From an uncultured Gammaproteobacteria bacterium (GTDB lineage: Bacteria > Patescibacteriota > Microgenomatia > Levybacterales > GWA1-39-11), in assembly GCA_964452165.1 (NCBI GenBank), contig CAYVKP010000001.1, positions 426,375 to 490,374 on the forward strand: a DNA stretch of 64,000 nucleotides. The letters are read 5' to 3'. How positions within the stretch are numbered: position 1 is the first letter of the stretch; each line of letters opens with the position of its first letter. A model generated the notes under the pieces. That model was not told the origin of the DNA. It was given only the letters and a program-made list of their open reading frames with translations, and ran no database searches. The translations under genes and the position numbers were made by a program. This document shows, one piece after another, positions 15,249 to 64,000 of this stretch.

Positions 15249-16004
15249 ATGAAACCGTTTTTCTTGTCCGTGGTGATTCCCTCCTACAACGAGATGGGAA
15301 ATCTTCGCAAAGGAATACTTGACCACATAGAGCATTACCTTGAGAGACAGAAGTATAAATACGAAGTGATAATAGTTGATGATGGATCAACTGACGGAAG
15401 CCGGGAGTTTGTAAAGGAGTTTGCAAAAGAAAACCATAAGTTTCGTTTAATGGAAAACTCGCATATGGGCAAAGCCGGGGCAGTAACCGCGGGTGTTTTA
15501 ACAGCCGTGGGCGATTATATTCTTTTCACCGATATGGATCAAGCAACCCCCATTGAGGAGCTTGAAAAACTTTTGCCTTTGGCAGAGAAGGGTGGAGATA
15601 TTATCATTGGATCCCGCAATGCAAGGCGTGGTGCACCTTTTTCCCGCCGAGTTATGTCAAAAAGCGCAGCGCTTCTGAGGATTTTGTTCGTAGGTATGCC
15701 GAAGCTCAAGGATACCCAGTGTGGTTTCAAGCTTTTTACAAAAAAAGCCGCTCGCGATATCTTCACCAAGATACACAAGATTCATAATGGATTTAAGACT
15801 ATCAGAGGGTCCTCGGTTACTGCCGGTTTTGATGTAGAGTTGTTGTACCTTGGTAAAAAAATGGGTTATTTTATTGTGGAGGTTCCGGTTGATTGGCTTT
15901 ATGTTGAAACCCGCCGCGTCTCTCCAATAAAAGACTCCATAGGAGGGGTTATTGATCTTATAAAAATTAAAAAGAATATTATAAAAGGGGTCTACAACAA
16001 CTAA
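15249..16004 (+). CDS. GT2 polyprenol-phosphate glycosyltransferase (DPM1/CsbB/GtrB-like). Start at 'MKPFF'; the ORF-track start at 15171 overlaps the tRNA
   Basis: 'LSVVIPSYNEMGNL...YEVIIVDDGSTDGS...GKAGAVTAGV...FTDMDQATP' are the DxD/GT-A motifs of dolichyl-phosphate mannose synthase-like enzymes. Confidence 0.85.
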   Translation: MKPFFLSVVIPSYNEMGNLRKGILDHIEHYLERQKYKYEVIIVDDGSTDGSREFVKEFAKENHKFRLMENSHMGKAGAVTAGVLTAVGDYILFTDMDQATPIEELEKLLPLAEKGGDIIIGSRNARRGAPFSRRVMSKSAALLRILFVGMPKLKDTQCGFKLFTKKAARDIFTKIHKIHNGFKTIRGSSVTAGFDVELLYLGKKMGYFIVEVPVDWLYVETRRVSPIKDSIGGVIDLIKIKKNIIKGVYNN

Positions 16005-16008
16005 TTTT

Positions 16009-17163
16009 ATGAAGAAACTTATCCTGCCTTTGTGGATAGCCACATCAGTTGCTCTTCTTCTTTATTCTTTTACTCAAGTTGATCTTTCTCTCACGCTTTC
16101 AAGAGCTTCAATCTACCAAGCAGTAGAGAAATCATTTCAGTACGTAGGATACTTTAATAGGCCGCTTTCAACATATATTTATATCGGAATTGTAGCTGTT
16201 TTGTTCGTTTTATATCTAATAACACTTAACCTTGTTCGCAAAAAACTAATTGATAGGAGAATGGTATTTGCCATAGTAATTTTTGCAGCGCTAATCCTTT
16301 TTCTCTCCTACAATGCCTTCTCATATGACTTCTTCAACTACATTTTTGACGCAAAGATTCTAACGCATTATCATGCAAACCCTTATTTGCATAAGGCATT
16401 GGATTATCCGGGTGACCCCATGCTTTCATTTATGCATTGGACGCACAGGACCTATCCATATGGGCCAATGTGGCTTGTGGTCACCGTGCCTTTATCTTTT
16501 ATAGGATTCGGATACTTTTTGTTAACGTTCTATTTATTTAAACTACTTATGGCGGCAAGCTTTATTGGATCAGCTTTTTTAATAGAGAAAATAGCAAAAC
16601 GAACAGGGGTTGATACATTACTTGCTGTGGTTGCCTTTGCTCTTAATCCGTTGGTTTTAATTGAATGTTTGGTTTCAGCCCATAACGATATAGTCATGAT
16701 TTTTATTGGTCTTTTTGCACTTCTTGCTTTCCTTGAAGGTAAATATGTTAAGTCTTTGTTCGCTTTAATAATTTCGGTTGCAATAAAGTACGCGACAGCA
16801 CTTATGATACCTGCAATAATCGCCAAGGGTATTTTTAAAGTCGAAAAGGAGAAGTTTTTCTACGTTTTGATTATATCAATGCTTCTTCCTATCGGATTCG
16901 CATCATATAGGACTCAGTTTCAGCCATGGTACCTTCTCTACGCGCTTCCCTTTGCGGCTTTTGTGCAAAAGAAATATTTTGTTATGATTCCCGTCGTCAT
17001 AGTCTCACTTTTTGCTCTACTTAATTACGTTCCGTTTTTATACAATGGTAATTGGGATCCGCCAACACCCACAATTCTTGCCTACATGCTTTACGGTTCA
17101 ATCGCGGCCTCGGTAGTATTGGTTGTGATAAAACCCTTCTTTTTTCCCAACAAGGTTGAGTAG
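16009..17163 (+). CDS. DUF2029/GT87-like GT-C polytopic membrane glycosyltransferase
   Basis: The first-loop motif 'YDFFNYIFDAKILTHYHANPY' follows the DUF2029 pattern (D...Y..aa..ll.g.dPY). It has about 10 TM segments and 'SAHNDIVMIF'. A paralog sits at 53722. Confidence 0.6.
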   Translation: MKKLILPLWIATSVALLLYSFTQVDLSLTLSRASIYQAVEKSFQYVGYFNRPLSTYIYIGIVAVLFVLYLITLNLVRKKLIDRRMVFAIVIFAALILFLSYNAFSYDFFNYIFDAKILTHYHANPYLHKALDYPGDPMLSFMHWTHRTYPYGPMWLVVTVPLSFIGFGYFLLTFYLFKLLMAASFIGSAFLIEKIAKRTGVDTLLAVVAFALNPLVLIECLVSAHNDIVMIFIGLFALLAFLEGKYVKSLFALIISVAIKYATALMIPAIIAKGIFKVEKEKFFYVLIISMLLPIGFASYRTQFQPWYLLYALPFAAFVQKKYFVMIPVVIVSLFALLNYVPFLYNGNWDPPTPTILAYMLYGSIAASVVLVVIKPFFFPNKVE

Positions 17164-17164
17164 C

Positions 17165-17208: not shown

Positions 17209-18765
17209 ATGCTTAAAAATAGATACTTCTCCTTGCTTCTGGGGGCACTTGGAATAGTTGCATTATATTTCTTCTTAAGAATTTTTCACATTCTCAGCTT
17301 GCCTCTTTTTACTGATGAAGCAATTTATATAAGATGGGCACAAATAGCCAAACAAGACGCAGCCTGGCGATTTATTTCGCTGACAGACGGGAAACAGCCC
17401 ATGTTCGTATGGATTGCGATGGTAGCTTTAAAATTTGTCAAAGAGCCTATTTTGGCAGGGCGCTTGGTCTCGGTTTTTGCCGGATTTGCTACAACGATCG
17501 GATTATTTTTCTTGGGGAATGAAGTATTCAAGGAAAAAGATAAGAAGGGAGAATTTAAAATATTTTCGTTCACGAAAGCAACTGTTGCGATAGGACTTCT
17601 CTCAGGTTTTATTTACACAATTTATCCATTCGGCCTAGTTTATGACCGTATGGCTCTCTACGATAGTCTTGCTGCGACTTTTGCGGTTTGGATTTTGTAT
17701 CTTCTTCTTGTGACTGTGCGGACTTTAAGGCTTGACGTCGCTCTCATTACCGGAATCGTTGCCGGTGGAGGGGGTCTGACTAAGTCAAATGATTTCCTGT
17801 CAGTTTATTCCATTCCGTTTTTATTGCTGATTTTTGATTGGAAGAAAAAAGTTGTATCTTCGCGTCTTGCCAGATTTGCTGGGTTGTCTCTGCTCATAGT
17901 AATTTTTACCTACTCAATATATTCAATTCTCAGGCTTTCTCCGTTCTTCCACATAATAGGTGACAAGAACGCTCTTTTTGTCTATCCGGTTCGTGAGTGG
18001 ATAGAACATCCTACCCAATATTTATCAAGTAATCTCTCGGCGCTGGTAAATTGGTTAATAATATACTTTAGTATTCCGGGAATAGTCCTGGTTCTTGCCT
18101 CTTTTTTTGTTAACAAAAAGAACTTTCTTGAAAAATCTGTCCTTGTTTTGTGGTTCTTATTTCCATTTGCAGTGCTTGCGTTTTTTGGCAAATTAATTTA
18201 TCCACGATTTATACTCTTGATGACCCTTCCTTTAATTCCTCTAGTTTCATACAGTATTTATAATTTGCTCGATAATTATAAGAATTTTATTTTTAGAGTA
18301 GCCGTTATAATATTTGCTTTTGCATTTTATGTCTATGCCGACTTTTTCATTATTACCAATTTCTCCGCGGCTCCCATTCCAAGAGCCGATACCGGTCAGT
18401 TCATAAACAACTGGTCTGCGGGAAATGGTGTTAATCAATCCGTTTCGTTTTTCAAAAAACAGGCGGTTAGTCAAAAAATATATATAGCGACAGAAGGAAC
18501 GTTTGGGCTTATGCCATTTGGTCTTGAAATGTATCTTGTTGATAATCCTAATGTTAAAATCCAGGCTTTCTGGCCGATTCAAAATACTCCTCCAGAAGAA
18601 GTGGTAAGTAGCGCAAAAATTATGCCGACGTATGCCATTTTTTATCAGCCTTGTCCTTCGTGTCTTGGTACACAAATTCCAAACGGCTGGAAGGCTCGGG
18701 AAATAGCAAGTTACAAACAAGGGACAAGCGATTATTACTACAGAATTTATCAAATTCTTCCATGA
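17209..18765 (+). CDS. ArnT/PMT-like (GT39/GT83) GT-C membrane glycosyltransferase
   Basis: The N-terminal first-loop 'LPLFTDEAIYIRWAQ' (DE motif), multi-TM topology and C-terminal soluble domain are typical of 4-amino-arabinose/mannosyl transferases. Confidence 0.7.
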   Translation: MLKNRYFSLLLGALGIVALYFFLRIFHILSLPLFTDEAIYIRWAQIAKQDAAWRFISLTDGKQPMFVWIAMVALKFVKEPILAGRLVSVFAGFATTIGLFFLGNEVFKEKDKKGEFKIFSFTKATVAIGLLSGFIYTIYPFGLVYDRMALYDSLAATFAVWILYLLLVTVRTLRLDVALITGIVAGGGGLTKSNDFLSVYSIPFLLLIFDWKKKVVSSRLARFAGLSLLIVIFTYSIYSILRLSPFFHIIGDKNALFVYPVREWIEHPTQYLSSNLSALVNWLIIYFSIPGIVLVLASFFVNKKNFLEKSVLVLWFLFPFAVLAFFGKLIYPRFILLMTLPLIPLVSYSIYNLLDNYKNFIFRVAVIIFAFAFYVYADFFIITNFSAAPIPRADTGQFINNWSAGNGVNQSVSFFKKQAVSQKIYIATEGTFGLMPFGLEMYLVDNPNVKIQAFWPIQNTPPEEVVSSAKIMPTYAIFYQPCPSCLGTQIPNGWKAREIASYKQGTSDYYYRIYQILP

Positions 18766-21161
18766 GAATTCCTCTATTTCCTCTAATCGTTTCGGTTTTA
18801 ATATCTGCTTTCTTTTTCTTTCAGATCTTTTCGGGAAAAATCCCCTTCCCCGGAGATCTACTGGTAGGAAATTACGAGCCCTATAAGTCTTTGTCTTACG
18901 GAGGGTTTGCCCCGGGCGCTGTCCCTAATAAAGCTCAGGGACCTGATGTAATCAAAGAGCTATTGCCGTGGAAAAAATTTACAATCGATAGCTTCAAAAA
19001 AATGGAGCTACCCCTTTGGGATCCTTACAATTTTTCCGGCAATCCAATGATGGCAAATTTTCAAAGTGGAGTTTTCTATCCAGGTAACCTGGTATTCTTT
19101 CTTCTCAGCTTTGAGAACGCATGGACGTTATATATTTTTCTTGCGCCCGTTTTATCCATTCTATTCACTTACCTATTTTTAAGAAGACTAAAGTTGGCCT
19201 TCTGGCCTTCAATTTTTGGTGGAGTCTCTTTTGCGTTCTGCCTTTATATGACGGTTTGGATAGAGTATGGGAATATTGGTCATACTTTTGTTTTTCTCCC
19301 GCTGATCCTTTATTTTGCCGACAAACTAATCGAGAAGACAGATAAAATAAGTTTTCTTGGAATTGTTGTTGCTGGATTTTGCGCGGCTCTCGCAGGCTAC
19401 ATACAGGGTCTTTTTTATATTTACGCAATTGTTTTTGTTTACTTTTTGATAAAAAGCAATTCTCTCAAAAAATTGAATTTCAGAAAAACATTTGTATTTA
19501 TCTCCACCTTAATATTTCCCATAATTCTGTCGGCTTTCCAGATCCTGCCAACACTTGAATTATTTGGTAATTCTACGAGGGGTAATTATACGTTCTCCCA
19601 AATCGAGAAGATGCTTAATCCAATTTATTATTTGATAACAGTTGTGGCTCCTGATTTTTTTGGAAACCCAGCCGCCCGAAATTATTGGTTTAACGGTACA
19701 TATATAGAACGGGCATCGTATTTCGGCTTGATTCCGTTGATTTTTGCAATTCTTGCAATAGTTTCAATCAAAAAAGTAGAAGTGAAAATATTCACGATTC
19801 TTTTTCTTTTTTCTCTTCTAATCTCGACAGACCTTTTTGTTACTAGATTTTTCTATCTGATCCCAATCCCCGTTCTGTCGACTACGGTTGCCACTAGAAT
19901 TCTAAGTATCTTATCTTTTTCCGGGGCAATTCTTGCGGCTTTTGGATTTGATTACGTGTTGGAAAATAAGAACAAGAAAAAGATTTTTATGATTAGTCTT
20001 TCACTGCTTGCAATACTGGGAGGAGCATTTTTGCTTTCGATAATTTATCCTAAGACCACCACCAATATTAGTCTTATTGCGGAGGCGAACATTGCTAAAA
20101 GAAATCTGATCGTTCCGCTTACGACCCTGATTGTATTCATTGGCTCAACTATGATTTTTGTTTCTAGGTTTGAGATATTCAAGAGACATCATAAAAACTT
20201 TTACATTTTCGCTGTTCTTGCCATTACAATTCTTGAGTTGTTTTATTATTTCCAAAAGATTACGCCTTTTGCTCCCAAAAGCTATTTATATCCGCAAGCA
20301 CCCGTCGTTGATTTTATAAAGAATAATGCCGGGATTAATCGTTATTGGGGATACGGTTTTGCATATATCGAAAGTAATTTCCAAACTTTTGACCAAACGT
20401 TTTCAACTGAAGGAAATGATCCTCTCCACATCAAGAACTACACCGAGATTTTGGCCGCTAGTAAAACCGGTAGGCTCCCCGAAATTCTTCCCCGGCCCGA
20501 TGCTAATATTGCTGGGGGGTTTGGTAGTGAGGATCTTTCCGAAAATATTTATCGGCGGAAAATCCTAAATATCACCGGCGTAAAATACGTTTTAAATAAA
20601 GACGAAGGGATAAAGGAAGAAGCAAATCCTGACAATGTTACTTTCCCTCCGGATCGTTATAAATTGGCATGGCAAAATGGTTTCTGGCAAGCATATGAAA
20701 ATTTGGATATGACACCCCGTTTCTTTTTAACAAACGAATATGTTGTTGTCCCGAATAAGAGTAGGGCGCTAGAGACTATTTTTGCTTCGGACTTTGACGA
20801 AAAGAAAAAGCTCATTTTGTATGAAGATCCCAAGGTTTCGGGGGGACAACTTTTGCAAAGCACAAACCTCATTTCCTATTCACAAAATAGAGTAGAGATC
20901 CATTCTAGTTCTTCGGGACCGGCCCTTCTTTACCTTTCAGATAATTACTATCCTGGTTGGCAGGCGAGCATCGATGGAAAAAATAGTAAGATTTATCTTG
21001 CGGATTACAGTTTTAGAGCAGTTGCGGTTCCGGCAGGACCGCATAAAATAGTTTTTTCTTTCCATCCTAAAAAATTTTATTACGGACTTTATATATCAGC
21101 AGTAGCCCTTTTAGGACTTTTGGTCTATTTGTTTAAATTCAATTTCAAAAATGAAAAATAA
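18762..21161 (+). CDS. YfhO-family GT-C membrane protein (800 aa). Start at 'MRIPLFPL', overlapping the upstream stop as ATGA
   Basis: 'LPLWDPYNFSGNPMMANFQSGVFYPGN' and the C-terminal 'YYPGWQASIDGKNSKIYLADYSFRAVAVPAGPHKIVFSFHP' match the YfhO N- and C-terminal signatures. Confidence 0.8.
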   Translation: MRIPLFPLIVSVLISAFFFFQIFSGKIPFPGDLLVGNYEPYKSLSYGGFAPGAVPNKAQGPDVIKELLPWKKFTIDSFKKMELPLWDPYNFSGNPMMANFQSGVFYPGNLVFFLLSFENAWTLYIFLAPVLSILFTYLFLRRLKLAFWPSIFGGVSFAFCLYMTVWIEYGNIGHTFVFLPLILYFADKLIEKTDKISFLGIVVAGFCAALAGYIQGLFYIYAIVFVYFLIKSNSLKKLNFRKTFVFISTLIFPIILSAFQILPTLELFGNSTRGNYTFSQIEKMLNPIYYLITVVAPDFFGNPAARNYWFNGTYIERASYFGLIPLIFAILAIVSIKKVEVKIFTILFLFSLLISTDLFVTRFFYLIPIPVLSTTVATRILSILSFSGAILAAFGFDYVLENKNKKKIFMISLSLLAILGGAFLLSIIYPKTTTNISLIAEANIAKRNLIVPLTTLIVFIGSTMIFVSRFEIFKRHHKNFYIFAVLAITILELFYYFQKITPFAPKSYLYPQAPVVDFIKNNAGINRYWGYGFAYIESNFQTFDQTFSTEGNDPLHIKNYTEILAASKTGRLPEILPRPDANIAGGFGSEDLSENIYRRKILNITGVKYVLNKDEGIKEEANPDNVTFPPDRYKLAWQNGFWQAYENLDMTPRFFLTNEYVVVPNKSRALETIFASDFDEKKKLILYEDPKVSGGQLLQSTNLISYSQNRVEIHSSSSGPALLYLSDNYYPGWQASIDGKNSKIYLADYSFRAVAVPAGPHKIVFSFHPKKFYYGLYISAVALLGLLVYLFKFNFKNEK

Positions 21162-22704
21162 ATACATTTATATTGTCCTCTTAATTTTATTTGTAATTCC
21201 GTCTTTCTGGTTCCTTGCAAAACCGGGTTTTATTACAACGGATGATGGTAATTGGATGATAATCCGCTTCTCAGCTTTTTATCAAGCTTTGCGAGACGGT
21301 CAATTTCCTGTTCGATTTCTAACCAGACTTAATTTTGGATATGGTTATCCGGTTGCAAACTTTTTATATCCCGCATTTATGTATCTTGCCGTTCCTTTTA
21401 AGATTGCCGGTTTGAGTTTTATCAACTGCATAAAAATAATAATAGGACTTAGTATCGTGTCCTCGGGACTATTTATGTTTTTATGGTTGAAACGCTTTTT
21501 TGATGAAGTGAGTTGTTTTTTCGCAAGTCTTTTTTATGTTTACGCCCCGTATCATCTCTACGACCTGTCAAAAAGAGGTTCTGTTGGTGAATTGCTCTCT
21601 CTCGCGGTTTTCCCGTTTGTCTTGTGGCAAGTAGAAAGAGAAGATTTAGTATTATCATCCTTGGGATTGGCACTGCTTATCGTATCTCATAACACCCTGG
21701 CCATTCTGTTCGTTTTAGCAATTATCCTCTATATGATTGGGTCTTTATATTCTCAAAAGAATAAGAAAAAGCTTTTAGACTTTTACAAGAAAACCTTACT
21801 TTTCGGCTTTGGAATTTCTGCTTTTTTCTCCCTGCCCGCGATACTTGAACTGGGCAATACGGTTTTCTCAAAAACTCACATATCCGACTTCAACACGTAT
21901 TTTGCAGACTACAATTTAATAGGAATAACAACGTTTATTATTATTCTTGTTGCGGCGGGGCTTTTAGTAAAAAACAATTTACTTAGAAAACACAAAATGA
22001 CAGTCGTTTTTATAATTGTTGCATTATTTTGTATTTTCCTCGCGTCTTCATTTAGTGCGCCTTTTTGGGAATTTCTTCCCGTGTCGTTTATACAATTTCC
22101 ATTCCGTCTTTTATCACTCGCGCTTATTTGTGTTGCTTTTCTTCTGGCTTTTTCTCTTTCTCAAATCCCAATTAAGTTTAGAATTGGTGCAGGAGTTCTT
22201 CTTGTCATCGCTACAATGTATTTTTCAAAAGATTATTTATTGCCCAAAAATTTTAATCTTCAAGACGATAGTTTTTATTCCACAAACGAAGCAACAACTA
22301 CAGTAATGGACGAATATATGCCAAGGTGGGTTGCAAAAAAACCAAGTAGCCATTTCGAAAATAAGGTTGATGTGGTAAAAGGCGAAGGACAAGTACAAAA
22401 TATCACCTACAATGCTGATAAAATATCATTTGATTATGTATCATCATCTCCCGCGCAAGTCAGAATAAACACAATTTATTATCCCGGGTGGCAAGCATAT
22501 TCCGATAATCAACCCAAAGCCATTTTCTATGATAATGACCAAGGAACCATGGACTTAAAACTGGGGGGCAAAGACCAAAAGATTACTCTTGTTTTTGGTG
22601 AAACTCAAGAAAGATTGCTAGCGGACGCAATTTCAATCATGTCTCTACTCGCATTGTCTACATTGGTATACAAGAATAAAATACTCAATTTGTTTAAGAA
22701 ATGA
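21151..22704 (+). CDS. Short YfhO-related polytopic membrane protein, 'family A' paralog 1 (517 aa)
   Basis: It shares motifs with four paralogs: first-loop 'TDDGNW...FPVRF...NFGYGYPVANFLYP', 'YAPYHLYDLSKRGSVGE', 'FQFPFR', and a C-terminal 'YYPGWQAY.D'. Confidence 0.7.
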   Translation: MKNKYIYIVLLILFVIPSFWFLAKPGFITTDDGNWMIIRFSAFYQALRDGQFPVRFLTRLNFGYGYPVANFLYPAFMYLAVPFKIAGLSFINCIKIIIGLSIVSSGLFMFLWLKRFFDEVSCFFASLFYVYAPYHLYDLSKRGSVGELLSLAVFPFVLWQVEREDLVLSSLGLALLIVSHNTLAILFVLAIILYMIGSLYSQKNKKKLLDFYKKTLLFGFGISAFFSLPAILELGNTVFSKTHISDFNTYFADYNLIGITTFIIILVAAGLLVKNNLLRKHKMTVVFIIVALFCIFLASSFSAPFWEFLPVSFIQFPFRLLSLALICVAFLLAFSLSQIPIKFRIGAGVLLVIATMYFSKDYLLPKNFNLQDDSFYSTNEATTTVMDEYMPRWVAKKPSSHFENKVDVVKGEGQVQNITYNADKISFDYVSSSPAQVRINTIYYPGWQAYSDNQPKAIFYDNDQGTMDLKLGGKDQKITLVFGETQERLLADAISIMSLLALSTLVYKNKILNLFKK

Positions 22705-24233: not shown

Positions 24234-24933
24234 ATTATCCATATTTTTTCCTTTTTGGAACGAGGAAAAAAACATACGAGAAGTAGTTTTAAAAGCTTCT
24301 CAAGTCGCGCACGAAGTAGCTGAGAAATGGGAAATAATAATAGTTAATGATGGCTCTTCTGACAACACGCTTGGCGAGGCAGAAGCTCTTGTTAAATCGG
24401 AAAAAAACATTCGAATTATTTCTCACACGCCTAACAGGGGATACGGAGCTGCAATTAAGGAAGGTCTTGAGAAGTCAAAATACAACTACGTGGTATTTAC
24501 CGATGGGGACGGGCAATTTGATTTTTCCGAGGTGGATAAGTTTGTAGAAAATATTGAAGATGTAGATATGGTCATTGGTTACAGGAAAAAAAGGAGAGAC
24601 CACAATCTAGCAAAAAGACTTATGCTTATGAACTTACTTAAAGCTTGGGATTTTGTCCTCTTTGGGTTTTTGTTTCGCGATATAGACTGCGGTTTTAAAA
24701 TGTTCACACGAAGAGCAATTGATGAAATATCTCCATTACGAAGTGAGGGCGCAATGATAACAACCGAAATTCTTGCAAAGGCTGTAAGGAAGAAACTAAA
24801 AATTAAGCAGGTAGAAGTAAGTCACTACCAAAGAAAATTCGGAAAGCAAACCGGCGCAAATCTCCCCGTTATCGTGCGAGCTATACTCGAGAGTTTGATT
24901 CTTTGGTCCGATATACACAACAAGAGAATATAA
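24214..24933 (+). CDS. GT2 family glycosyltransferase (DPM1-like)
   Basis: 'LSIFFPFWNEEKNI...EIIIVNDGSSDNT...VVFTDGDGQFD' are GT-A DxD motifs. Confidence 0.8.
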   Translation: MAKILPELSIFFPFWNEEKNIREVVLKASQVAHEVAEKWEIIIVNDGSSDNTLGEAEALVKSEKNIRIISHTPNRGYGAAIKEGLEKSKYNYVVFTDGDGQFDFSEVDKFVENIEDVDMVIGYRKKRRDHNLAKRLMLMNLLKAWDFVLFGFLFRDIDCGFKMFTRRAIDEISPLRSEGAMITTEILAKAVRKKLKIKQVEVSHYQRKFGKQTGANLPVIVRAILESLILWSDIHNKRI

Positions 24934-27311: not shown

Positions 27312-27313
27312 TA

Positions 27314-30161: not shown

Positions 30162-30162
30162 A

Positions 30163-31006: not shown

Positions 31007-31102
31007 ATGCAATTATTAAGTAAGTTAAAGATATTTGAGAACCAGGCGGGGGTTCTGGATTTTTACTTGGGTAGATTTGGAAGAGGAAGCTTTCCAATTT
31101 AA
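31007..31102 (+). pseudogene. 31-codon remnant homologous to the 3' end of the GT2 gene 27314–28225 (MQLLSKLKIFENQAGVLDFYLGRFGRGSFPI*)
   Basis: It aligns with '...LKIFKEGRQWQKKGVVDFYLGRFGKGSFPI*' at 28130–28225. The last 24 nt, including the stop, are identical. The next gene's ATG follows directly. Confidence 0.6.
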
Positions 31103-46778: not shown

Positions 46779-46815
46779 ATATCTTTTTGTGATTGTGGTA
46801 ACTTAAATAAGCACA

Positions 46816-48477: not shown

Positions 48478-48479
48478 AT

Positions 48480-54840: not shown

Positions 54841-54841
54841 G

Positions 54842-56665: not shown

Positions 56666-58271
56666 ATTCTTGCTTTTAAGCATAATTGTCTCCATCTTTG
56701 CCATTTTGGATTTATTCAATTATGGAATTCCTCCAACTCACGACGGAGAGTATCACGTTTTAAGATTCTGGCAATTTTATAAAGTTCTTGCATCTGGATT
56801 TTTGTATCCAAGATGGGCGCCCGATTTTAATAATGGTTTTGGGGTCCCTCTTTTTAATTATGTATATCCTCTTCCCAACTACATTGCCTCACTTTTTCAT
56901 TTTCTAGGATTTGGTTTTATCGATTCGCTCAAATTGAATATGGTGTCGGCAACCATTATAGGTGGGATATTTTTTTATCTCTGGACAAAAAAATATTGGG
57001 GGGAATTGGGAGGAGCGTTATCTTCAGTTTTTTATACTTTTTCTCCTTACCATTTCGTTGATATATATGTAAGAGGATCTGTTGGAGAGGTATGGGCCCT
57101 TGCTATCTTCCCGATACTTTTGTGGTCTTACGACGGTTTTATTGCAACTAAAAAAAGAACTTATCTTGCATTTTCTTGCGTAAGTCTGGGGCTTTTAATA
57201 CTTGCACATAACATATTAGCGTTAATGTTCTTCTGTTTTTTTATTTTATATTCTGCAATAGGATTTAAAAATAAAAGTGATTTATTGGCGTTTGCAATAA
57301 TAGTTTTGGTTGGGTTGGGTCTTGCCTCTCCTTTCTGGCTTCCCGCTCTTCTTGAGACCAAGTATGTTCAGGGACTTGCGATATTTGATATCAGTGCAGG
57401 TTTTACTGCCGTACATAAGTTTTTCGTCCCCACCTGGGGTTTCGGTATTTCTCCAAATGACCCATTAAATCCGATGTCGGTACAGATAGGCTATGCAAAT
57501 CTGTTTGCAATTTTTGTAAGTGCCATTTCCCTTATTTTTAAGAAACTAGGTAAGCTATCCATATTCTTTCTATTGTCATTTTTTGCAGTATTTTTCTTAA
57601 TGACTCCTTACTCAATTTTCCTTTGGAAACATATTCCTCTTTTTTCATATTTTCAATTTCCCTGGCGGCTTTTAAGTCTTGAGATTTTGATTTGCTCATA
57701 TCTTGCGGGGGGTGTAGTTTCAAATATAAAGGTGGAAAACAAAAAAATGAAATTCGTATTAATTATTGGCCTTTTTAGTTTGCCTTTATTGTTAGGTATT
57801 AGATATAGAAAGGCTTTCGTTTACTATCCAAGAAATGATAGTCATTATCTATCAAGATCTAACTTTACAGATGGGACTAATAGTCCGGGAAATGCATTTA
57901 ATACAAAGTGGTTGGACAAAGTTCCTCCTAAAGCCAAGAGCAGGATTAGTATTACAGGTGGTTCGGTTACATTAAAAAACTTGAAGATAACTCCCTTGTC
58001 TTATAATTTAGAAACAAGCTCCAGCCTAAGCTCTACCCTGCGAATTAATGCTGCCTATTTCCCGGGTTGGGAGGGGTCGCTCGACGGGCATAAGGTTTCC
58101 CTAGTTAACAAAAAAGGTTTAATATCGCTTGATATTCCAGAAGGCAACCATAAAGTACGGGTTTTTCTTGGAAGCACCAATATTCAAAAAATTTCCTATG
58201 TTTATTTTCTCCTTTCCCTCTTGTTTTTGGCTTTAATAACCAGAAGAACTATTGGTATAATTAAAAAATGA
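56631..58271 (+). CDS. Short YfhO-related polytopic membrane protein, family A paralog 5 (546 aa)
   Basis: 'THDGEYHVLRFWQFYKVL..GFLYPRWAPDFNNGFGVPLFNYVYP', 'FSPYHFVDIYVRGSVGE', 'FQFPWRL' and 'AYFPGWEGSLDGHKV'. Confidence 0.7.
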   Translation: MRTAKALYTKYKFLLLSIIVSIFAILDLFNYGIPPTHDGEYHVLRFWQFYKVLASGFLYPRWAPDFNNGFGVPLFNYVYPLPNYIASLFHFLGFGFIDSLKLNMVSATIIGGIFFYLWTKKYWGELGGALSSVFYTFSPYHFVDIYVRGSVGEVWALAIFPILLWSYDGFIATKKRTYLAFSCVSLGLLILAHNILALMFFCFFILYSAIGFKNKSDLLAFAIIVLVGLGLASPFWLPALLETKYVQGLAIFDISAGFTAVHKFFVPTWGFGISPNDPLNPMSVQIGYANLFAIFVSAISLIFKKLGKLSIFFLLSFFAVFFLMTPYSIFLWKHIPLFSYFQFPWRLLSLEILICSYLAGGVVSNIKVENKKMKFVLIIGLFSLPLLLGIRYRKAFVYYPRNDSHYLSRSNFTDGTNSPGNAFNTKWLDKVPPKAKSRISITGGSVTLKNLKITPLSYNLETSSSLSSTLRINAAYFPGWEGSLDGHKVSLVNKKGLISLDIPEGNHKVRVFLGSTNIQKISYVYFLLSLLFLALITRRTIGIIKK

Positions 58272-59323
58272 GAATAGCAGTTGATACGTCTCCTATAGGA
58301 AAAAAATCGGACTCGGCGCATAAGGTTCGTGGTGTAGGCATGTACATAAATATGTTGGTAGATAACCTTCCAAAATTTGATAAAAAGAATGAATATATTT
58401 TTTTTGAGGGGAATAAGTATCCTGAAAATGTGGATTTAGTTCATTATCCCTATTTCGATCCCTTTTTTTTGACTTTACCCTCCAGCATTAAAAAAAAGTT
58501 TGCAGTTACTGTTCACGATTTAACTCCACTTGTGTTCAAAAAAAATTTCCCTGCTGGATTAAAGGGTAACATCAGATGGCTACTTCAGAAGAAGAGATTA
58601 CAAGGGGCAGGAGTTGTAATTGCCGATTCCCAAGTTTCCAAGAGTGACATAGCAAAGATTGCCAGCATAGATCAGAATAAAATTAAAGTAGTATATCTTG
58701 CGGCAGACGCAAAGCTTAAAAAAATTACAGGTTCTTCCTGGAAAATTTCGATCAGGAAAAAATATTCACTGCCCGACAATTTCTTACTTTACGTAGGTGA
58801 TGCCACGTGGAATAAAAATTTACCAAATCTCATTGAGGCAATTCAAAAAACTGATAGCAAACTGGTTATGGTTGGCAAAGTATGGGAAAATTCCTCAACA
58901 GAAATTCTGAATCACCCCTGGAATAATGATCTGAAAAAAACTCTATCGCAAGTTCAAAAAGACGATAGATTTATTCGTTTGGGTTTTGTCCCAACTGAAG
59001 ATCTTGCCGCGATATATAATTTGTCGACAGCGCTTTTAATGCCTTCAATATACGAGGGTTTTGGCCTACCGGTACTTGAGGCAATGTCTTGCGGGTGTCC
59101 AGTTATCTGTTCTCGAGGAGGAAGTCTGCCGGAAGTCGGAGCAGAAGCCGCATATTATATGGACGGATTTGATAGTAGCAGCATAGCCGAGGCAATAGAA
59201 AAAGTTGTCGGAGGTATTGACTTACAAAAGAAGTTATCAGAAAGAGGGTTGGTCCAAGCAAAGAAGTTTTCAATTGAAAAATCAATTAGATCCCTCGTGG
59301 AAACATATGAAGGCATTTATTAA
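58268..59323 (+). CDS. GT4 family (GT-B) glycosyltransferase
   Basis: 'EGFGLPVLEAMSCGCPVICSRGGSLPEV' is the E-x7-E motif. Confidence 0.8.
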   Translation: MRIAVDTSPIGKKSDSAHKVRGVGMYINMLVDNLPKFDKKNEYIFFEGNKYPENVDLVHYPYFDPFFLTLPSSIKKKFAVTVHDLTPLVFKKNFPAGLKGNIRWLLQKKRLQGAGVVIADSQVSKSDIAKIASIDQNKIKVVYLAADAKLKKITGSSWKISIRKKYSLPDNFLLYVGDATWNKNLPNLIEAIQKTDSKLVMVGKVWENSSTEILNHPWNNDLKKTLSQVQKDDRFIRLGFVPTEDLAAIYNLSTALLMPSIYEGFGLPVLEAMSCGCPVICSRGGSLPEVGAEAAYYMDGFDSSSIAEAIEKVVGGIDLQKKLSERGLVQAKKFSIEKSIRSLVETYEGIY

Positions 59324-60566
59324 AAAAACTTTTGCTAACAAATTTTTGTCGGCCACCCTTTGGGTATTCCTTGGAACCGGTTTCATGAATTTCGGGAGTT
59401 ACGTCTACCACCTGTTGATGGGTAGAATGCTGGGTGTTTCTCTATATGGAGCACTTGAGAGCGTTATCTCGCTTCTTTATATATTGTTTGTGCCAACTCT
59501 TGCTCTAAGTTTGGTAGTCGTCAAGTTCGTCTCAGAGTATAAAGGCAAGGGAGAGAAAACCTTAATGAGCGATCTGTATAACTACGCCTTCAGTAAGTTG
59601 GTTTTGCTTGGGGTTGCAACTTCGGTCTTGGTTATTCTTTTGACTCCTATTCTAAAATCATTCTTGCATCTTTCATCAAACTTTTTAATTCCAATTCTTG
59701 CGTTGACCTTTTTGCTAAATCTTGTTTACACCCTTAATAAGAGTGTAGTCCAGGGTACATCATCATTTTTTAAATTCGGAATTCTAAACTTTCTTGAAAC
59801 AGCCGGAAAGCTTGTTTTTGCTGTTGTATTGGTTTGGTTGGGTTTTAAAGTGGAGGGCGCATTCGCCGCTACCGGAATAGGACTTTTGTTAGGATTTGTC
59901 CTATCGATAAGTTTTATACGTGGCATTATTAAAACTAAATTTGATATTAGTGCTAAATTCTCAAAGCAAAAAAACCTACTTAAATTTGCAATCCCCACAT
60001 TTATAACAACGCTTGCTCTCATGTCATTGTTCACAACTGACATCGTTTTGGTCAGACATTTTTTCAGCGGAACAGAATCGGGGTATTACTCAGCGTTGTC
60101 GGTTTTGGGAAAGATAGTTTACTACGGAGCATCGCCGATTGTTTTTGTAGTCTTTCCCATGGTGTCAGAATCTCACGCAAGAGGAGATAGATATCAAAAG
60201 TTTTTGATAGGCGGTTTTGCTATTACTCTTGCAATATGTTCTGCGATAACTATTATTTACTTTACTGCCTCAAATCTAATGGTTAATCTACTGTTCGGAC
60301 CTAAATTTTCACCAATTGCTCCCCTCCTTGGTTTGTTCGCAGTATTCATTTCCATATATGCTTTGGGATCATTGCTCGCAAACTTTTATCTTTCTATTCA
60401 TAAAACAACATCTTCTATAATCGTTGCTGTTGCCGCTATCGCGCAGATAATTTTGATAAATTTTTTCCACGCAAATCTCTCTCAGGTAATATGGGTTTCT
60501 ATAATAGTTACATTTTTACTTCTAATATCCCTTTTGCTATACTATCCGCATGCAAAAAGTGGATAA
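59307..60566 (+). CDS. Wzx/MOP-superfamily polysaccharide flippase (second copy). Start at 'MKAFIKK'; the ORF-track start at 59205 lies inside the GT4 gene
   Basis: It has about 12–14 TM segments, and 'polysaccharide biosynthesis protein'-like N-terminal helices ('LWVFLGTGFMNFGSYVYHLLMGRMLG'). Confidence 0.65.
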   Translation: MKAFIKKTFANKFLSATLWVFLGTGFMNFGSYVYHLLMGRMLGVSLYGALESVISLLYILFVPTLALSLVVVKFVSEYKGKGEKTLMSDLYNYAFSKLVLLGVATSVLVILLTPILKSFLHLSSNFLIPILALTFLLNLVYTLNKSVVQGTSSFFKFGILNFLETAGKLVFAVVLVWLGFKVEGAFAATGIGLLLGFVLSISFIRGIIKTKFDISAKFSKQKNLLKFAIPTFITTLALMSLFTTDIVLVRHFFSGTESGYYSALSVLGKIVYYGASPIVFVVFPMVSESHARGDRYQKFLIGGFAITLAICSAITIIYFTASNLMVNLLFGPKFSPIAPLLGLFAVFISIYALGSLLANFYLSIHKTTSSIIVAVAAIAQIILINFFHANLSQVIWVSIIVTFLLLISLLLYYPHAKSG

Positions 60567-61323
60567 AATCAATCTCATTTCGTTTGTTGTCCCAGCTTAC
60601 AAACAACAAAAAACAATAGTAAAAGACATAAGTAATCTTAAGAAAGTTCTGTCAGCCCTTCCTTACAAATATGAAATAATTGTTGTGGTTGATGGAAGAC
60701 TTGATAACACCGCCGACAGATTAAATCGGTACAGGAAAGATGATACCGTCGTCTTAGAATATGAAAAAAATCAAGGCAAGGGTTTTGCTGTTAAACACGG
60801 CGTATTAACAGCAAAGGGAGACCTTATAGGTTTTATTGATGCGGGAATGGATCTTGATCCGTCTGTAATTTCGATAATGATAGATTTGATGGAATGGAAC
60901 AACGCCGACATTGTGATTGGCAGTAAGCTTCATCCTGATTCTAAAGTTAAATATCCGCTCATAAGAAAAATCTTATCCTGGGGGTGGAGGAGCTTGACAC
61001 ATATAATATTCGGATTTTCAATCAAAGATACTCAGGTGGGTCTTAAATTATTTAAAAGAAGGGTAGCAAGAGATGTATTTCCGAGGCTTCTCGTAAAGAG
61101 ATTTGCTTTTGATGTTGAGATGCTATCTTTGGCGTATGCTTTGGGTTATAGGAAGATAATCGAGGCACCCGTTAGGCTTAATTTTAGGAATACTAGCTCC
61201 ATCACGTCCTCTAATTTCTGGAAAGAGATATTTCAAATGCTTTGGGACAGCGCTGCTGTTTTTTATAGAGTTAAGTTAATTAAATACTACAGAAAAAGTA
61301 ATAAAAAAAACTGGTTAAATTAG
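60550..61323 (+). CDS. GT2 polyprenol-phosphate glycosyltransferase-like (DPM1/CsbB-like)
   Basis: 'ISFVVPAYKQQKTI...YEIIVVVDGRLDNT...GFIDAGMDLD' and a C-terminal amphipathic region. Confidence 0.7.
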   Translation: MQKVDKINLISFVVPAYKQQKTIVKDISNLKKVLSALPYKYEIIVVVDGRLDNTADRLNRYRKDDTVVLEYEKNQGKGFAVKHGVLTAKGDLIGFIDAGMDLDPSVISIMIDLMEWNNADIVIGSKLHPDSKVKYPLIRKILSWGWRSLTHIIFGFSIKDTQVGLKLFKRRVARDVFPRLLVKRFAFDVEMLSLAYALGYRKIIEAPVRLNFRNTSSITSSNFWKEIFQMLWDSAAVFYRVKLIKYYRKSNKKNWLN

Positions 61324-61324: not shown

Positions 61325-62437
61325 GTGAATATATTAATTCTTAATTGGAGAGATATTAAAAATCCGCAATCTGGTGGAGCTGAGATTTTGACACACGAAT
61401 TGGCAAAGAGAATGGTTGGGGACGGTCAGAACGTCATCCAATTTTCCTCAAGATACAAAAACTCAAAGGCGAGTGAGATGGTGGATGGGGTAAAAATAAT
61501 AAGAAGGGGTAATCCTGATGCTAGGACGCTCTTTTCCTCCGTTCATTATGAAGCTTACAAATATTATAAAAAAAATTTAAAAGGGAAAGTCGATTTGGTT
61601 ATTGATGAAGTTCATGGTATTCCTTTCTTTACCCCCTTGTATGTTAAAGAAAAAAAAGTAGTTTTAATATGCGAGGTCGCAGGAAAGTTGTGGGACGTTG
61701 CCGTAAAGTTCCCTTTTAATTTTTTTGGGAAAAGCGTTGAAAAAATTTATCCTTTTCTTTATAAAAACTTACCCGTGATAACAATATCCAATTCTTCAAA
61801 GAATGAACTTGTAGACTTGGGATTTTCAAAAAAAAGTACAAGCGTAATTAAGCTCGGCTGTGATACTCCAATCATCTCAAATCCAAAAAAAAATAAATTT
61901 CCAACTCTCATATTCGTAGGAAGACTGACTCGTCAGAAGGGAATAGAAGACGCAATTCTGGTAACGTCTATCTTAAAAAAAAGTTTTCCCAGGATTTGCC
62001 TATGGGTTATAGGTAGGGGACAGGATAGATATGTGAGATACTTGAATGAGCTTATTAAAAAAAGTTCTCTTGAACAGAATGTGAAGCTTTGGGGTTTTGT
62101 AGAAGACGATGAAAAAAATAAATTACTCGAGAAGTCTCATGTATTGATTTCTCCCTCAGCCAAGGAGGGCTGGGGATTAACAGTGCATGAAGCGGGCGCA
62201 AGGGGTACTCCGTCTGTGACCTATAACGTTGAAGGTTTGAGGGAAGTGGTTATTCCCGGTAAGAATGGATTACTATCAAAAACCAATACACCGGGGGACA
62301 TGGCAAAATCAGTAGAGCTCTTACTAAGTGACAAAAAAAAGTATGAGCAAATGCAGCAAGGAGCGATAGAGGAGAGGAAAAAGTTTACCTGGCAGGCAAC
62401 TTATAACAACTTCAAATCTATAATTGACAATGATTAA
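61325..62437 (+). CDS. GT4 family (GT-B) glycosyltransferase
   Basis: 'EGWGLTVHEAGARGTPSVTYNVEGLREVV' is the E-x7-E motif. The N-terminus is 'ILILNWRDIKNPQSGGAE'. Confidence 0.8.
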   Translation: MNILILNWRDIKNPQSGGAEILTHELAKRMVGDGQNVIQFSSRYKNSKASEMVDGVKIIRRGNPDARTLFSSVHYEAYKYYKKNLKGKVDLVIDEVHGIPFFTPLYVKEKKVVLICEVAGKLWDVAVKFPFNFFGKSVEKIYPFLYKNLPVITISNSSKNELVDLGFSKKSTSVIKLGCDTPIISNPKKNKFPTLIFVGRLTRQKGIEDAILVTSILKKSFPRICLWVIGRGQDRYVRYLNELIKKSSLEQNVKLWGFVEDDEKNKLLEKSHVLISPSAKEGWGLTVHEAGARGTPSVTYNVEGLREVVIPGKNGLLSKTNTPGDMAKSVELLLSDKKKYEQMQQGAIEERKKFTWQATYNNFKSIIDND

Positions 62438-63758
62438 GGTTATCAAAAAGAAATATATTTACATCATCCTTCTGGTAATTATAGTTCTCGGCTTTTTTCT
62501 GAGAAAGCACGACTTAAATACATGGCCAAGACTTGGGGCAACCTTTGATGAATATGCATGGACCTGGCAGGGAATGAATCTTATAGAGAAGGGGGTACCG
62601 ATTTCTTGGTCTCCTCATCCTCAGTATAAAAATGCAAAAGAAATCATTTACCAAAAAACACATTTTAGACTCGTAACTCCATACCTTGAGCACCCGCCAC
62701 TATTTGGTCTGGTTGCGGGAGGGTTTGCTATATTAAGAGGTGCACAAGACATGTATCATCTTGAGCTTAGATATATTCGTCCTCTGGCATTGTTACTTGG
62801 AACAATTAGTATATTTTTGGTTTATTTACTCGCAAGCGAAATATACGACAAAAGAGTAGGCATTCTTTCCTCAGTACTTTATGCTGTTGTTCCTACTGTC
62901 GCGGTTGGATCAAGAATAGTCCAGAATGAAAACTTTTTCATACCTCTTTGGTTGTGTAGTCTATTTTTAATAACGAAATTTATCAAAACGAAAAATCCCA
63001 CATATAGAAATATTGCTGCCGTTATTTGTGGACTTTTGATTTTAGCCAAAATTCCTTGGATCGCAGCCGCTGGATCAATAATTCTCATCTTGATGTATTT
63101 GAAGAAATATAAAGACGCTGGAATGTTTGCCGCCATTGTAATTCCGATCGCACTTATTTATCTTGTTTATGGAATTTATTTTGATTCCAAACTTTTCTTC
63201 AGTCTTTGGGGACTCCAGCTTAACCGATACGACATAAGTTTTACAAGTATATTTGCCTTATTCCAAAAGCCATATCTCGTTGACCGTTTTTTAACTGATG
63301 GGTGGATTTATTTTGGTTGGTTTGCCTACGTCTTATTGTTGGCCAAAGATTTTAAGAAAAATTTTATTATAATCCTGGCCTTATTATCTTATTTTGTAAT
63401 TTTTCTGGCTGGAATTCCGGATGAACCGGGACACGGCTGGTATAGATATCCATTCTATCCCTTCCTGATTATTTCTATTGCTCTTTTCATTAAGGAATAT
63501 TTCAATAAAAATTATCTCCTAACGTTTTTCTTCCTGGTTTTGGTAGGTGCTCCCCTGTTACAGTTGACATGGGTTCCAGTATTCGGATTTTCATATTTCA
63601 TATTTAGGTTGGCGATAATAGGCTGGAGTACATCTTTATTACCCGTTTTTATTCCAAATAAGAGCTTAGCTAGGTTTTCGCATGTAGCGAGCTACATCTG
63701 GTTTGGATTGTTTATCATCCTTAGTATTTTTGCCACGCTACAGTATAATGAACAATAG
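62424..63758 (+). CDS. PMT_2/GT39-like GT-C polytopic membrane glycosyltransferase (444 aa)
   Basis: 'GATFDEYAWTWQGMNLIEKG' is a DE-type first-loop motif. It has about 11 TM segments. Confidence 0.6.
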   Translation: MTMIKVIKKKYIYIILLVIIVLGFFLRKHDLNTWPRLGATFDEYAWTWQGMNLIEKGVPISWSPHPQYKNAKEIIYQKTHFRLVTPYLEHPPLFGLVAGGFAILRGAQDMYHLELRYIRPLALLLGTISIFLVYLLASEIYDKRVGILSSVLYAVVPTVAVGSRIVQNENFFIPLWLCSLFLITKFIKTKNPTYRNIAAVICGLLILAKIPWIAAAGSIILILMYLKKYKDAGMFAAIVIPIALIYLVYGIYFDSKLFFSLWGLQLNRYDISFTSIFALFQKPYLVDRFLTDGWIYFGWFAYVLLLAKDFKKNFIIILALLSYFVIFLAGIPDEPGHGWYRYPFYPFLIISIALFIKEYFNKNYLLTFFFLVLVGAPLLQLTWVPVFGFSYFIFRLAIIGWSTSLLPVFIPNKSLARFSHVASYIWFGLFIILSIFATLQYNEQ

Positions 63759-63779
63759 TAAAAAAAATCCACAGAAAGT

Positions 63780-64000
63780 ATGAAAGTTTTTATTACAGGT
63801 GCCGGAGGGCAGCTAGCCAGATCATTTTCAGAGATTAATTCTAAAAACGAGTTGCACCTCGTGGGTAAAGAAGACCTAGACGTTACAAATTTGAATCAAG
63901 TCCTTCAACAAGTAGCTGCATTTAAGCCCGATATAATTTTCCATTTTGCCTCTATGACACGCGGAGATGAATGTACAAAAAATCCAGACCGAGCGTATGA
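63780..64000 (+). CDS. rfbD: dTDP-4-dehydrorhamnose reductase, N-terminal fragment (continues past the window end)
   Basis: 'MKVFITGAGGQLARSF...DLDVTN...KPDIIFHFAS' is the RmlD NAD(P)-binding N-terminus. Confidence 0.7.
   Translation, partial: MKVFITGAGGQLARSFSEINSKNELHLVGKEDLDVTNLNQVLQQVAAFKPDIIFHFASMTRGDECTKNPDRAY

Follow-up and report, generated by a model that had tools for sequence, protein, structure and literature searches.

What does an ultra-small bacterium build with a block of some forty genes, 18 of which encode membrane-embedded glycosyltransferases? The question is raised by a 64,000-nucleotide stretch of DNA (here called the window; positions 426,375 to 490,374 of contig CAYVKP010000001.1, assembly GCA_964452165.1) from a groundwater member of Levybacterales (Microgenomatia), in the candidate phyla radiation (CPR). 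From position 15249 to the window end runs a co-directional cluster of about 49 kb. A first reading of the letters alone (the sequence-only reading) placed a cell-envelope glycosylation supercluster here, built from iterated modules of a CsbB-like glycosyltransferase of family GT2, a flippase, and a YfhO-type glycosyltransferase of fold class C (GT-C). Open reading frames (ORFs) and Pfam matches confirm the cluster and its extent. It is dominated by GT-C enzymes accompanied by synthase-like GT2s and flippases, as that reading held, and it almost certainly builds or decorates cell-surface sugars. The iterated modules do not hold up. With about even confidence we regard the vertically inherited locus, which is longer than 53 kb, as a Microgenomates assembly line that depends on polyprenyl-phosphate sugars and works outside the cytoplasm. 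Its product would be a complex envelope glycopolymer, preferably a heteropolysaccharide anchored to the wall or the membrane.

The cluster has 39 genes in the window, not about 42 as first counted: 37 complete genes and one partial gene on the + strand and one small gene on the − strand. Nearly all genes are on the + strand, as claimed, and assigned genes cover 99% of that strand of the cluster. Gene starts were corrected from independent gene calls, including those on an overlapping contig (L080); Logan assemblies of runs SRR9179560-63 hold overlapping pieces of the window. With the corrected starts, 21 of 37 gene junctions overlap. Ten of these are four-base start/stop overlaps (nine ATGA and one GTGA) and 11 are of other lengths, in agreement with the dense ATGA-type overlaps and tight coupling noted at first. 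The remaining junctions have gaps of at most 10 bp (nine), 11-60 bp (five), or more than 60 bp (two). A junction gap of 294 bp is not empty, as it holds the − strand gene, which encodes a DUF5652 protein. The sequence 5' of the gene starts (15000-64000) is AT-rich without recognisable Shine-Dalgarno motifs, and translation presumably depends on coupling or on other features of the leaders.

Twenty large multi-pass membrane proteins are encoded in the cluster. The sequence-only reading had allowed that most of them might belong to unrelated transporter families. Instead, 18 are GT-C enzymes and the other two are Wzx flippases. The GT-C calls rest on Pfam, precomputed PF26314 matches, profile-profile comparison, or fold. 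Four are YfhO proteins (PF09586; genes 4, 15, 18, and 21 in Table 1), as first counted, and all of them (78-103 bits) exceed the cut-off of 28.5 bits. Five are PTPS_related proteins (PF10131; genes 5, 6, 14, 22, and 32). Four of these exceed the cut-off of 26.4 bits, and gene 5 falls just under it with 25.6 bits. They correspond to the five short YfhO-like proteins of the first reading, and although the family name misleads, the two families are indeed homologous (hhalign 97.8%, E 1e-12, 247 columns). Six are PMT_2 proteins (PF13231; genes 3, 23 to 26, and 37), five of them above 26.1 bits, where five or six ArnT/PMT-like proteins had been counted. A DE motif follows the first transmembrane (TM) helix in five PMT_2 proteins, and gene 26 has D-x-x-D. 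The tandem genes 23 to 25 are 28-35% identical to one another. All 18 GT-C proteins retain Asp or a DE pair immediately behind the first TM helix, in line with the acidic motif that active GT-C enzymes are expected to have in their first extracytoplasmic loop (PMC8035078).

The last three GT-C proteins are less easily placed. A relaxed Pfam scan (E up to 10) gives no match for genes 2, 30, and 31, nor for the N-terminal domain of gene 12 (start 28839). Sequence searches of the PDB with the YfhO, PTPS_related, and MptA/B-like profiles and one PMT_2 profile returned nothing useful, and therefore folds had to be compared. Genes 2 and 30 match the MptA/B family (PF26314) by hidden Markov model (HMM) and have a GT-C fold; the MptA/B activity, polyprenol-phosphomannose-dependent alpha-1,6-mannosyl transfer to lipomannan, is suggested solely by the names that NCBI gives to some homologs. 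Gene 31 (54842-56665) encodes a protein of 607 aa with 12 TM helices and belongs to no Pfam family. Its structure, predicted with high confidence, has a GT-C fold closest to AftA. It has 91 detectable homologs, mostly from Levybacteria and Gottesmanbacteria, with a few from Clostridiales at 23-25% identity. To judge from the predicted structure, gene 31 is a candidate for a new GT-C family. AftA/PimE-like folds are found beside MptA/B-family folds among the GT-C enzymes of the cluster.

The cluster also encodes nine GT2 enzymes (genes 1, 7, 9, 10, 16, 19, 20, 27, and 35), fewer than the 11 or so first counted. The three GT4 enzymes (genes 17, 33, and 36) and two Wzx proteins (genes 8 and 34) were counted correctly. 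Apart from the DUF5652 gene and a three-gene cassette (genes 11 to 13), the remaining genes encode GalE, a DUF5667 protein, and RmlD (genes 28, 29, and 38). GalE and RmlD, both named in the first reading, pass equivalog cut-offs, RmlD by its full-length copy on L080 (TIGR01214, 247.9 against 224.05 bits). In-genome comparison and NCBIfam divide the GT2 enzymes into three groups. Genes 9, 16, and 27 have a TIGR04283/SunS-like N-terminal domain, and genes 10 and 19 resemble rhamnosyl- and galactofuranosyltransferases. Genes 1, 7, 20, and 35 form one clade in the tree and belong to the polyprenyl-phosphate synthase class (DPM1/ArnC/GtrB-like); here the first count of at least four DPM1/CsbB-like enzymes was right. 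These four proteins have 239-257 aa and no predicted TM helix (for gene 1, once its start is placed at 15249), and their orthologs are of equal length. Genes 7 and 20 align over nearly their full length with AglJ, ArnC, and PpgS of NCBIfam, gene 7 far below the cut-offs. Genes 1 and 20 were the two of the four searched against the PDB, and their best sequence matches are the Pyrococcus furiosus dolichol-phosphate mannose synthase (DPMS, 5mlz; E 6e-18 for gene 20), ArnC, and GtrB. None of the nine GT2 enzymes reaches an NCBIfam equivalog cut-off, and hence no sugar specificity can be assigned. Twice a DPM1-like GT2 adjoins a Wzx gene (genes 7-8 and 34-35).

Table 1. Features of the cluster and its left-hand anchor (positions in the window)
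Feature	Position	Strand	Evidence
tRNA-Glu(CUC)	15105..15178	−	ARAGORN, Rfam; conserved left-hand anchor
Gene 1: soluble GT2, DPM1/ArnC/GtrB-like synthase candidate	15249..16004	+	Pfam, PDB sequence matches
Gene 2: MptA/B-family GT-C (GT87-like)	16009..17163	+	
Gene 3: PMT_2-like GT-C, Pfam-borderline	17209..18765	+	E 3e-5, 24.7 bits vs cut-off 26.1
Gene 4: YfhO-family GT-C	18762..21161	+	PF09586, 91.3 bits; own orthogroup clade
Genes 5-6 (starts 21151, 22701): two PTPS_related GT-Cs	21151..24233	+	Pfam
Gene 7: soluble DPM1/AglJ/PpgS-like GT2	24214..24933	+	NCBIfam alignments
Gene 8: Wzx/MOP flippase	24937..26379	+	Polysacc_synt_3 E 1e-41, 143 bits
Genes 9-10 (starts 26376, 27314): two cytoplasmic GT2s	26376..28225	+	Pfam, NCBIfam
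Genes 11-13: HD / swivel-domain / PPDK_N cassette	28266..30996	+	Pfam, NCBIfam
Gene 14: PTPS_related GT-C	31103..32749	+	Pfam, orthogroup tree
Gene 15: YfhO-family GT-C	32730..35054	+	91.9 bits
Gene 16: cytoplasmic GT2	35030..35779	+	Pfam
DUF5652 small two-TM protein, 78 aa	35781..36017	−	PF18893 E 3e-21
Gene 17: GT4	36074..37144	+	Pfam
Gene 18: YfhO-family GT-C	37137..39422	+	77.9 bits
Gene 19: GT2, one C-terminal hydrophobic segment	39425..40360	+	Pfam
Gene 20: soluble DPM1/AglJ/ArnC-like GT2	40357..41076	+	Pfam, NCBIfam, PDB
Gene 21: YfhO-family GT-C, in some relatives only	41043..43451	+	103 bits
Gene 22: PTPS_related GT-C	43435..45090	+	Pfam, tree
Genes 23-25 (starts 45087, 46816, 48480): tandem PMT_2 (ArnT/PMT-like) GT-Cs	45087..50132	+	Pfam
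Gene 26: PMT_2 GT-C	50129..51409	+	Pfam
Gene 27: cytoplasmic GT2	51454..52227	+	Pfam
Gene 28: UDP-glucose 4-epimerase GalE	52224..53210	+	TIGR01179, 400.7 bits vs cut-off 262.3
Genes 29-32 (starts 53207, 53722, 54842, 56631): DUF5667, MptA/B-family, Pfam-less GT-C, PTPS_related	53207..58271	+	
Gene 33: GT4	58268..59323	+	Pfam
Gene 34: Wzx/MOP flippase	59307..60566	+	Polysacc_synt 52.6 bits; start per L080 gene call
Gene 35: DPM1/PpgS-like GT2	60550..61323	+	Pfam, NCBIfam, tree
Gene 36: GT4	61325..62437	+	Pfam
Gene 37: PMT_2 GT-C	62430..63758	+	Pfam, L080 gene call
Gene 38: RmlD, cut by window end	63789..64000	+	translation

Do these enzymes form independent modules of CsbB, flippase, and YfhO, each decorating a teichoic-acid-like polymer with a different sugar and together allowing combinatorial variation? 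True YfhO proteins, GT2 catalytic domains of the CsbB class (four of each), and flippases are all present. Each DPM1-like GT2 is also followed by membrane proteins: gene 1 by genes 2 to 6, gene 7 by gene 8, gene 20 by genes 21 to 26, and gene 35 by gene 37. However, the GT2 enzymes lack the C-terminal TM helices of CsbB and GtrB, and Pfam scans of the window give no match to a flippase of the GtrA/GtcA type. Synthases, flippases, and GT-C enzymes occur in the ratio 4:2:18, where iterated modules call for 1:1:1. The teichoic acid target proposed at first is unsupported, as no genes for teichoic acid synthesis are found in the window. We consider independent modules quite improbable.

The Firmicutes systems offer a closer parallel of another type. 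Both CsbB/GtcA/YfhO, which acts on lipoteichoic acid, and GacI/J/K/L of the group A carbohydrate share with the cluster a GT2 of the polyprenyl-phosphate sugar synthase class, a flippase, and an extracytoplasmic GT-C (PMC5836110, PMC7389260, PMC8035078). True YfhO-family members are common to the cluster and the former. In 'variant b' of multi-component transmembrane glycosylation, a soluble GacI-type GT-A enzyme works with the Wzx-type GacK and the GT-C enzyme GacL (PMC8035078). By analogy this variant is the best fit to the composition of the cluster, better than the CsbB/GtcA/YfhO triplet, as soluble GT-A enzymes and adjoining Wzx-type flippases are found in both. RmlD and rhamnosyltransferase-like GT2 enzymes in one locus likewise recall the streptococcal rhamnose polysaccharide loci with GacIJKL. 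While the Firmicutes systems have one GT-C each, the cluster has 18 from at least five families. It differs from them also in having neither a GtrA-type flippase nor an ABC exporter, in its CPR host, in its size of more than 50 kb, and in a gene order conserved across a class-level group.

Unlike the Gac type, the cluster gives no match to GacJ (DUF2304). It has instead the conserved DUF5652 mini-protein, which has two TM helices and is the only small membrane ORF in the cluster. The DUF5652 gene is found in 22 related loci (tblastn), always on the opposite strand, and it lies upstream of the ortholog of the GT4-YfhO pair in the loci checked. In the window its antisense position leaves a divergent intergenic region of 56 bp (36018-36073) before gene 17. 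By analogy with GacJ, and as speculation, DUF5652 could be the membrane partner of a soluble GT2. It could also mark an internal promoter.

Is the cluster peculiar to one genome? A YfhO-alignment scan of GTDB species representatives yielded 78 related loci. Their ORFs, with flanks of up to 10 kb, were classed by family HMMs and by best BLAST match to the window genes, and orthology was taken from best matches and neighbor-joining (NJ) trees. Nearly all loci with a taxon name come from Microgenomates (Levy-, Gottesman-, Chisholm-, Curtiss-, and Woesebacteria), with a best identity of 46-47%. At least five collinear genes are shared with the window in 47 of the 78 loci, at least eight in 33, and at least 10 in 20; the longest collinear run has 14 genes and lies inside a 22-kb locus. 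The recurrent order is 1-2-3-4-5-6-7-8-9-10-(14)-15/16-17-18-19-20-(21)-22-23-24-25 … 27-28-33-34-35-36. The adjacencies counted most often in related loci are 8->9 (31), 17->18 (29), 9->10 (28), and 5->6 (27); 7->8, a DPM1-like GT2 followed by Wzx, is counted 23 times and 2->3 15 times. The sequence-only reading had proposed that relatives be compared to see whether the supercluster is conserved or hypervariable, and the answer is that it is conserved. An unusually elaborate, combinatorial capacity, as it had proposed, is not borne out, since dozens of Microgenomates genomes have this gene order in common and orthologs are closer than paralogs. Such conservation of gene order and orthogroups across candidate phyla is the opposite of what the modular, combinatorial scheme predicts.

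Positional orthologs have median identities of 35-62%, many of them 45-65%, with about 35% at the YfhO and PMT_2 positions. Orthologs of gene 1 are 56-68% identical and those of gene 7 58-69%. Paralogs within the genome are 27-41% identical, mostly 27-37%. Every YfhO, PTPS_related, and DPM1-like paralog falls, in the NJ trees, among orthologs that have the same neighbours. Recent duplication of modules, which the first reading had suggested checking with paralog trees, can be rejected on these identities and on the separate orthogroup of each paralog. Because gene order, orthogroups, and the tRNA junction described below are conserved, the locus appears to be ancient and vertically inherited, and sequence comparison places the duplications before the split of these lineages. 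Each enzyme seems to have kept a distinct role since before that split, because the paralogs form context-consistent orthogroups. In a pathway common to the whole lineage, the paralogs would be specialists fixed long ago, and only some single GT-C enzymes would have been gained or lost.

Beyond the named Microgenomates groups the taxonomic breadth is uncertain. The same collinear cluster also occurs in records titled 'uncultured Gammaproteobacteria', 'Pacearchaeota archaeon', 'Eisenbacteria', and 'Saccharimonadales' (L009, L012-L014, L019, L020, L026, L047, L077, L079, and others). The bins are probably Microgenomates whose titles are placeholders or misassigned. DUF5652, DUF5655, and DUF5667 domains, which are typical of CPR genomes, are present.

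A tRNA-Glu(CUC) gene stands at the left edge of the cluster. Together with Wzx, GT2, GT4, and sugar-nucleotide genes, and with GT-C and sugar-modification genes that vary between relatives, it might indicate a strain-variable serotype island of the O-antigen or capsule kind, acquired horizontally beside a tRNA gene. Of 15 relatives, 13 have the tRNA gene upstream of their gene-1 ortholog, either adjacent or up to about 3 kb away, on either strand. Because the junction is kept in this way, the tRNA gene is a synteny anchor and not the mark of an island. The base composition of the cluster is that of its flanks, and collinearity extends over all five named Microgenomates groups. Loci of the Wzx/Wzy type do share with the cluster a co-directional, operon-like block of Wzx, GT2, GT4, and nucleotide-sugar genes. 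But Pfam scans of the window find no Wzy polymerase, O-antigen ligase, chain-length regulator, or initiating transferase (Wzy_C, Bac_transf, and Glycos_transf_4 have no match on L080 either), and the cluster is GT-C-dominated and conserved rather than serotype-variable. A horizontally acquired island at the tRNA gene is largely refuted by the conserved synteny and junction, and we reject it as scarcely credible. In three of these loci (range L019-L065), a tRNA-Gln(CUG) gene lies about 3.6-5 kb upstream of tRNA-Glu.

Conservation is not complete. L076 and L078 lack gene 21 and have gene 20 directly before gene 22; L079 lacks genes 29 to 32, and GalE abuts a GT4 gene there. Between genes 3, 4, and 5 some relatives have further genes of the PTPS_related or PMT_2 family. 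In the complete Levybacteria chromosome CP066685, the cluster (L003 3304-5944 and L038 1161-3523) includes two DegT aminotransferases, a hexapeptide acyltransferase, a GFO/IDH/MocA oxidoreductase, and a deacetylase, none of which is in the window, and it also carries a GT87 protein. The extra sugar-modification genes suggest lineage-specific amino-sugar components.

The cassette of genes 11 to 13 is an insertion between genes 10 and 14. It encodes an HD phosphohydrolase, a 440-aa protein (the unmatched N-terminal domain mentioned before, followed by a phosphohistidine swivel domain), and a 277-aa PPDK_N ATP-grasp protein. By its domains it looks like a split, order-swapped dikinase related to phosphoenolpyruvate (PEP) synthase and rifampicin phosphotransferase. 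None of the 78 related loci has a counterpart, and only 2-22 bp separate genes 10 and 14 in the three closest relatives. The same three-gene cassette, 60-76% identical, occurs at unrelated sites in other Levybacteria and in Daviesbacteria, and distant homologs exist in DPANN archaea. In L084 it adjoins an aminoglycoside-nucleotidyltransferase-like gene and an acetyltransferase gene, and in L085 it adjoins FemAB, with three PEP-utilizer paralogs. A part in a glycan-modifying pathway is unlikely for a cassette that is absent from every related cluster and has unrelated contexts elsewhere. Its genes are not glycosylation genes and not part of the conserved cluster. A hairpin (31038-31056) lies 3' of the cassette. 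It was noted in a promoter and terminator scan, used here for this purpose solely, in which both promoter-like sites (63 against 51.8±5.8 in shuffled sequence) and terminator-like sites (25 against 17.6±3.9) are in modest excess.

How could the conserved enzymes work together? We infer the donors, the sequential action of the GT-C enzymes, and the acceptor as follows. GalE, RmlD, and sugar-modifying enzymes encoded downstream would supply nucleotide sugars, from which eight cytoplasmic GT2 and GT4 enzymes would build a lipid-linked oligo- or polysaccharide backbone. The four soluble DPM1/ArnC/PpgS-like GT2 enzymes would load single sugars onto polyprenyl phosphate. The two Wzx-type proteins, each adjoining one synthase, would carry lipid-linked intermediates to the outer face of the membrane. 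There, each of the 18 GT-C enzymes would extend the glycan by its own sugar or linkage, and several of them would draw on one shared lipid-sugar donor. The ratio of 4:2:18, the separate conserved orthogroup of each paralog, and the likeness of folds to MptA/B, PimE, and AftA suggest that many GT-C enzymes share few donors on one polymer.

A pathway of this design exists in Corynebacterineae. In the synthesis of lipomannan (LM), lipoarabinomannan (LAM), and arabinogalactan (AG), many GT-C enzymes share few polyprenyl-phosphate donors on one polymer (Ppm1, PimE, MptA/B/C, AftA-D, and EmbA-C). Small soluble synthases, namely PpgS and the catalytic domain of Ppm1, also occur in it. The MptA/B-family members and the AftA/PimE-like folds of the cluster recall this pathway by analogy. 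However, sequence identity between the mycobacterial enzymes and the GT-C enzymes of the cluster is only about 8-17%. The YfhO and PTPS_related families have no part in that pathway, whose genes lie dispersed or in small groups and do not form one co-directional block as here. There is no evidence in the cluster of a phosphatidylinositol anchor, arabinose, or a mycolate layer.

Several observations weigh against this assembly line. The DPM1-like GT2 enzymes, having no membrane anchor and scoring below equivalog cut-offs, could be ordinary GT2 enzymes. No gene was found in the window for an acceptor, an initiating phosphoglycosyltransferase, a Wzy polymerase, an ABC exporter, or an LCP ligase. 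As the copy number of GT-C genes differs among relatives, not every enzyme is obligatory. In favour of the assembly line, an LCP ligase gene is present in a Levybacteria genome.

Alternatively, the target may be protein. PMT-like or PgfM1/PgfM2-like GT-C enzymes would then glycosylate Ser/Thr-rich S-layer proteins, pilins, or other surface proteins, and different GT-C enzymes would extend the glycan or serve different protein targets. The PMT_2 family with its DE motif, typical of PMT and ArnT, is common to the cluster and to PMT-type protein O-mannosylation. The best NCBIfam match of gene 1 is PgfS, though far below the cut-off, and a membrane-anchored DUF5667 protein is encoded within the cluster. 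GalE has its like in PgfE of the Streptococcus mutans pgfS-pgfM1-pgfE-pgfM2 operon, which as in the cluster combines a GT2 synthase, a GalE-type epimerase, and GT-C enzymes (PMC5856776, PMC12041528). But this operon has four genes against about forty, and known bacterial systems of protein O-glycosylation have one or two GT-C enzymes, not 18. The eight cytoplasmic GT2 and GT4 enzymes, the two Wzx proteins, and the MptA/B- and AftA-like GT-C enzymes are typical of polysaccharide building. No conserved acceptor protein can be named in the locus, as DUF5667 is absent from L071 and L079. Protein O-glycosylation is therefore an unlikely main function, though the least unlikely of the alternatives, and we prefer the envelope heteropolysaccharide.

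The cluster does not end with the window. On L080, positions 4879-9503 correspond to window position 63789 to about 68400, and the cluster continues there for at least 4.4 kb past the window end. The gene order on L080 is RmlD, GT2, Polysacc_deac_1, Formyl_trans_N, an SDR epimerase, and the start of a second epimerase. The Formyl_trans_N protein is weakly similar to the ArnA formyltransferase, and the SDR epimerase resembles GDP-fucose synthase. Together with the PMT_2 gene 37, these sugar-modifying genes loosely recall an Arn-type or formylated amino-sugar branch. In total the locus takes up 53 kb or more of the 650,109-bp contig, a share of 8% at least. In CP066685 (762,565 bp) it takes up at least 50 kb, from about 348.5 kb to beyond 398.8 kb.

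On the other side of the tRNA gene, the window has genes of other functions. LigD in full length, with phosphoesterase, ligase, and primase-polymerase domains, is encoded together with Ku at 8324-11622 on the − strand, which gives this small CPR genome a complete pair for non-homologous end joining. The genes for riboflavin synthase and lumazine synthase are grouped at 3773-5153 with that for riboflavin kinase, which is on the − strand. In an Rfam scan of the window tRNA-Glu is the sole match, and no flavin mononucleotide (FMN) riboswitch is found. Two ORFs to the left of the tRNA gene, 14312-15088 (+, 258 aa) and 13815-14285 (−, 156 aa), have no Pfam match even at E 10.

The component families of the cluster are all of known kinds. 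What appear to be new are the 18 GT-C enzymes in one block, the ultra-small CPR host that gives 6-8% of its genome to the locus, and the class-wide gene order. We found no prior description of the locus in full-text searches, which covered few subscription journals. One paper on a Microgenomates genome remarks only on '29 genes of glycosyl transferases' (PMC7143001).

What, then, does the locus mean for these bacteria? CPR bacteria have lost most biosynthesis and have tiny genomes, yet this lineage keeps about 50 kb, with about 40 genes and 18 GT-C enzymes, whose order hardly varies between several candidate phyla. The genomic cost points to a surface glycan that is central to their biology, in envelope integrity, host attachment, or phage defence. 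Tentatively, and with clearly less confidence than in the assembly line itself, we propose that Microgenomates, possibly alone in CPR, make an essential heteroglycan almost wholly outside the membrane by an ordered set of about 15-20 GT-C enzymes encoded in one ancestral locus, which accounts for the same 6-8% of the genome. If this is true, the set includes one or more GT-C families that Pfam does not model, and the product could be a host-attachment glycocalyx. An ultra-small episymbiont would then have a bacterial counterpart of the mycobacterial AG/LAM pathways or of the eukaryotic ALG, glycosylphosphatidylinositol (GPI), and PMT pathways of the endoplasmic reticulum lumen. The locus is a natural set of diverged, orthology-resolved GT-C enzymes (YfhO, PTPS_related, PMT_2, MptA/B, and the Pfam-less family) for studies of specificity, and it gives a testable handle on the almost unknown chemistry of the Microgenomates cell envelope.

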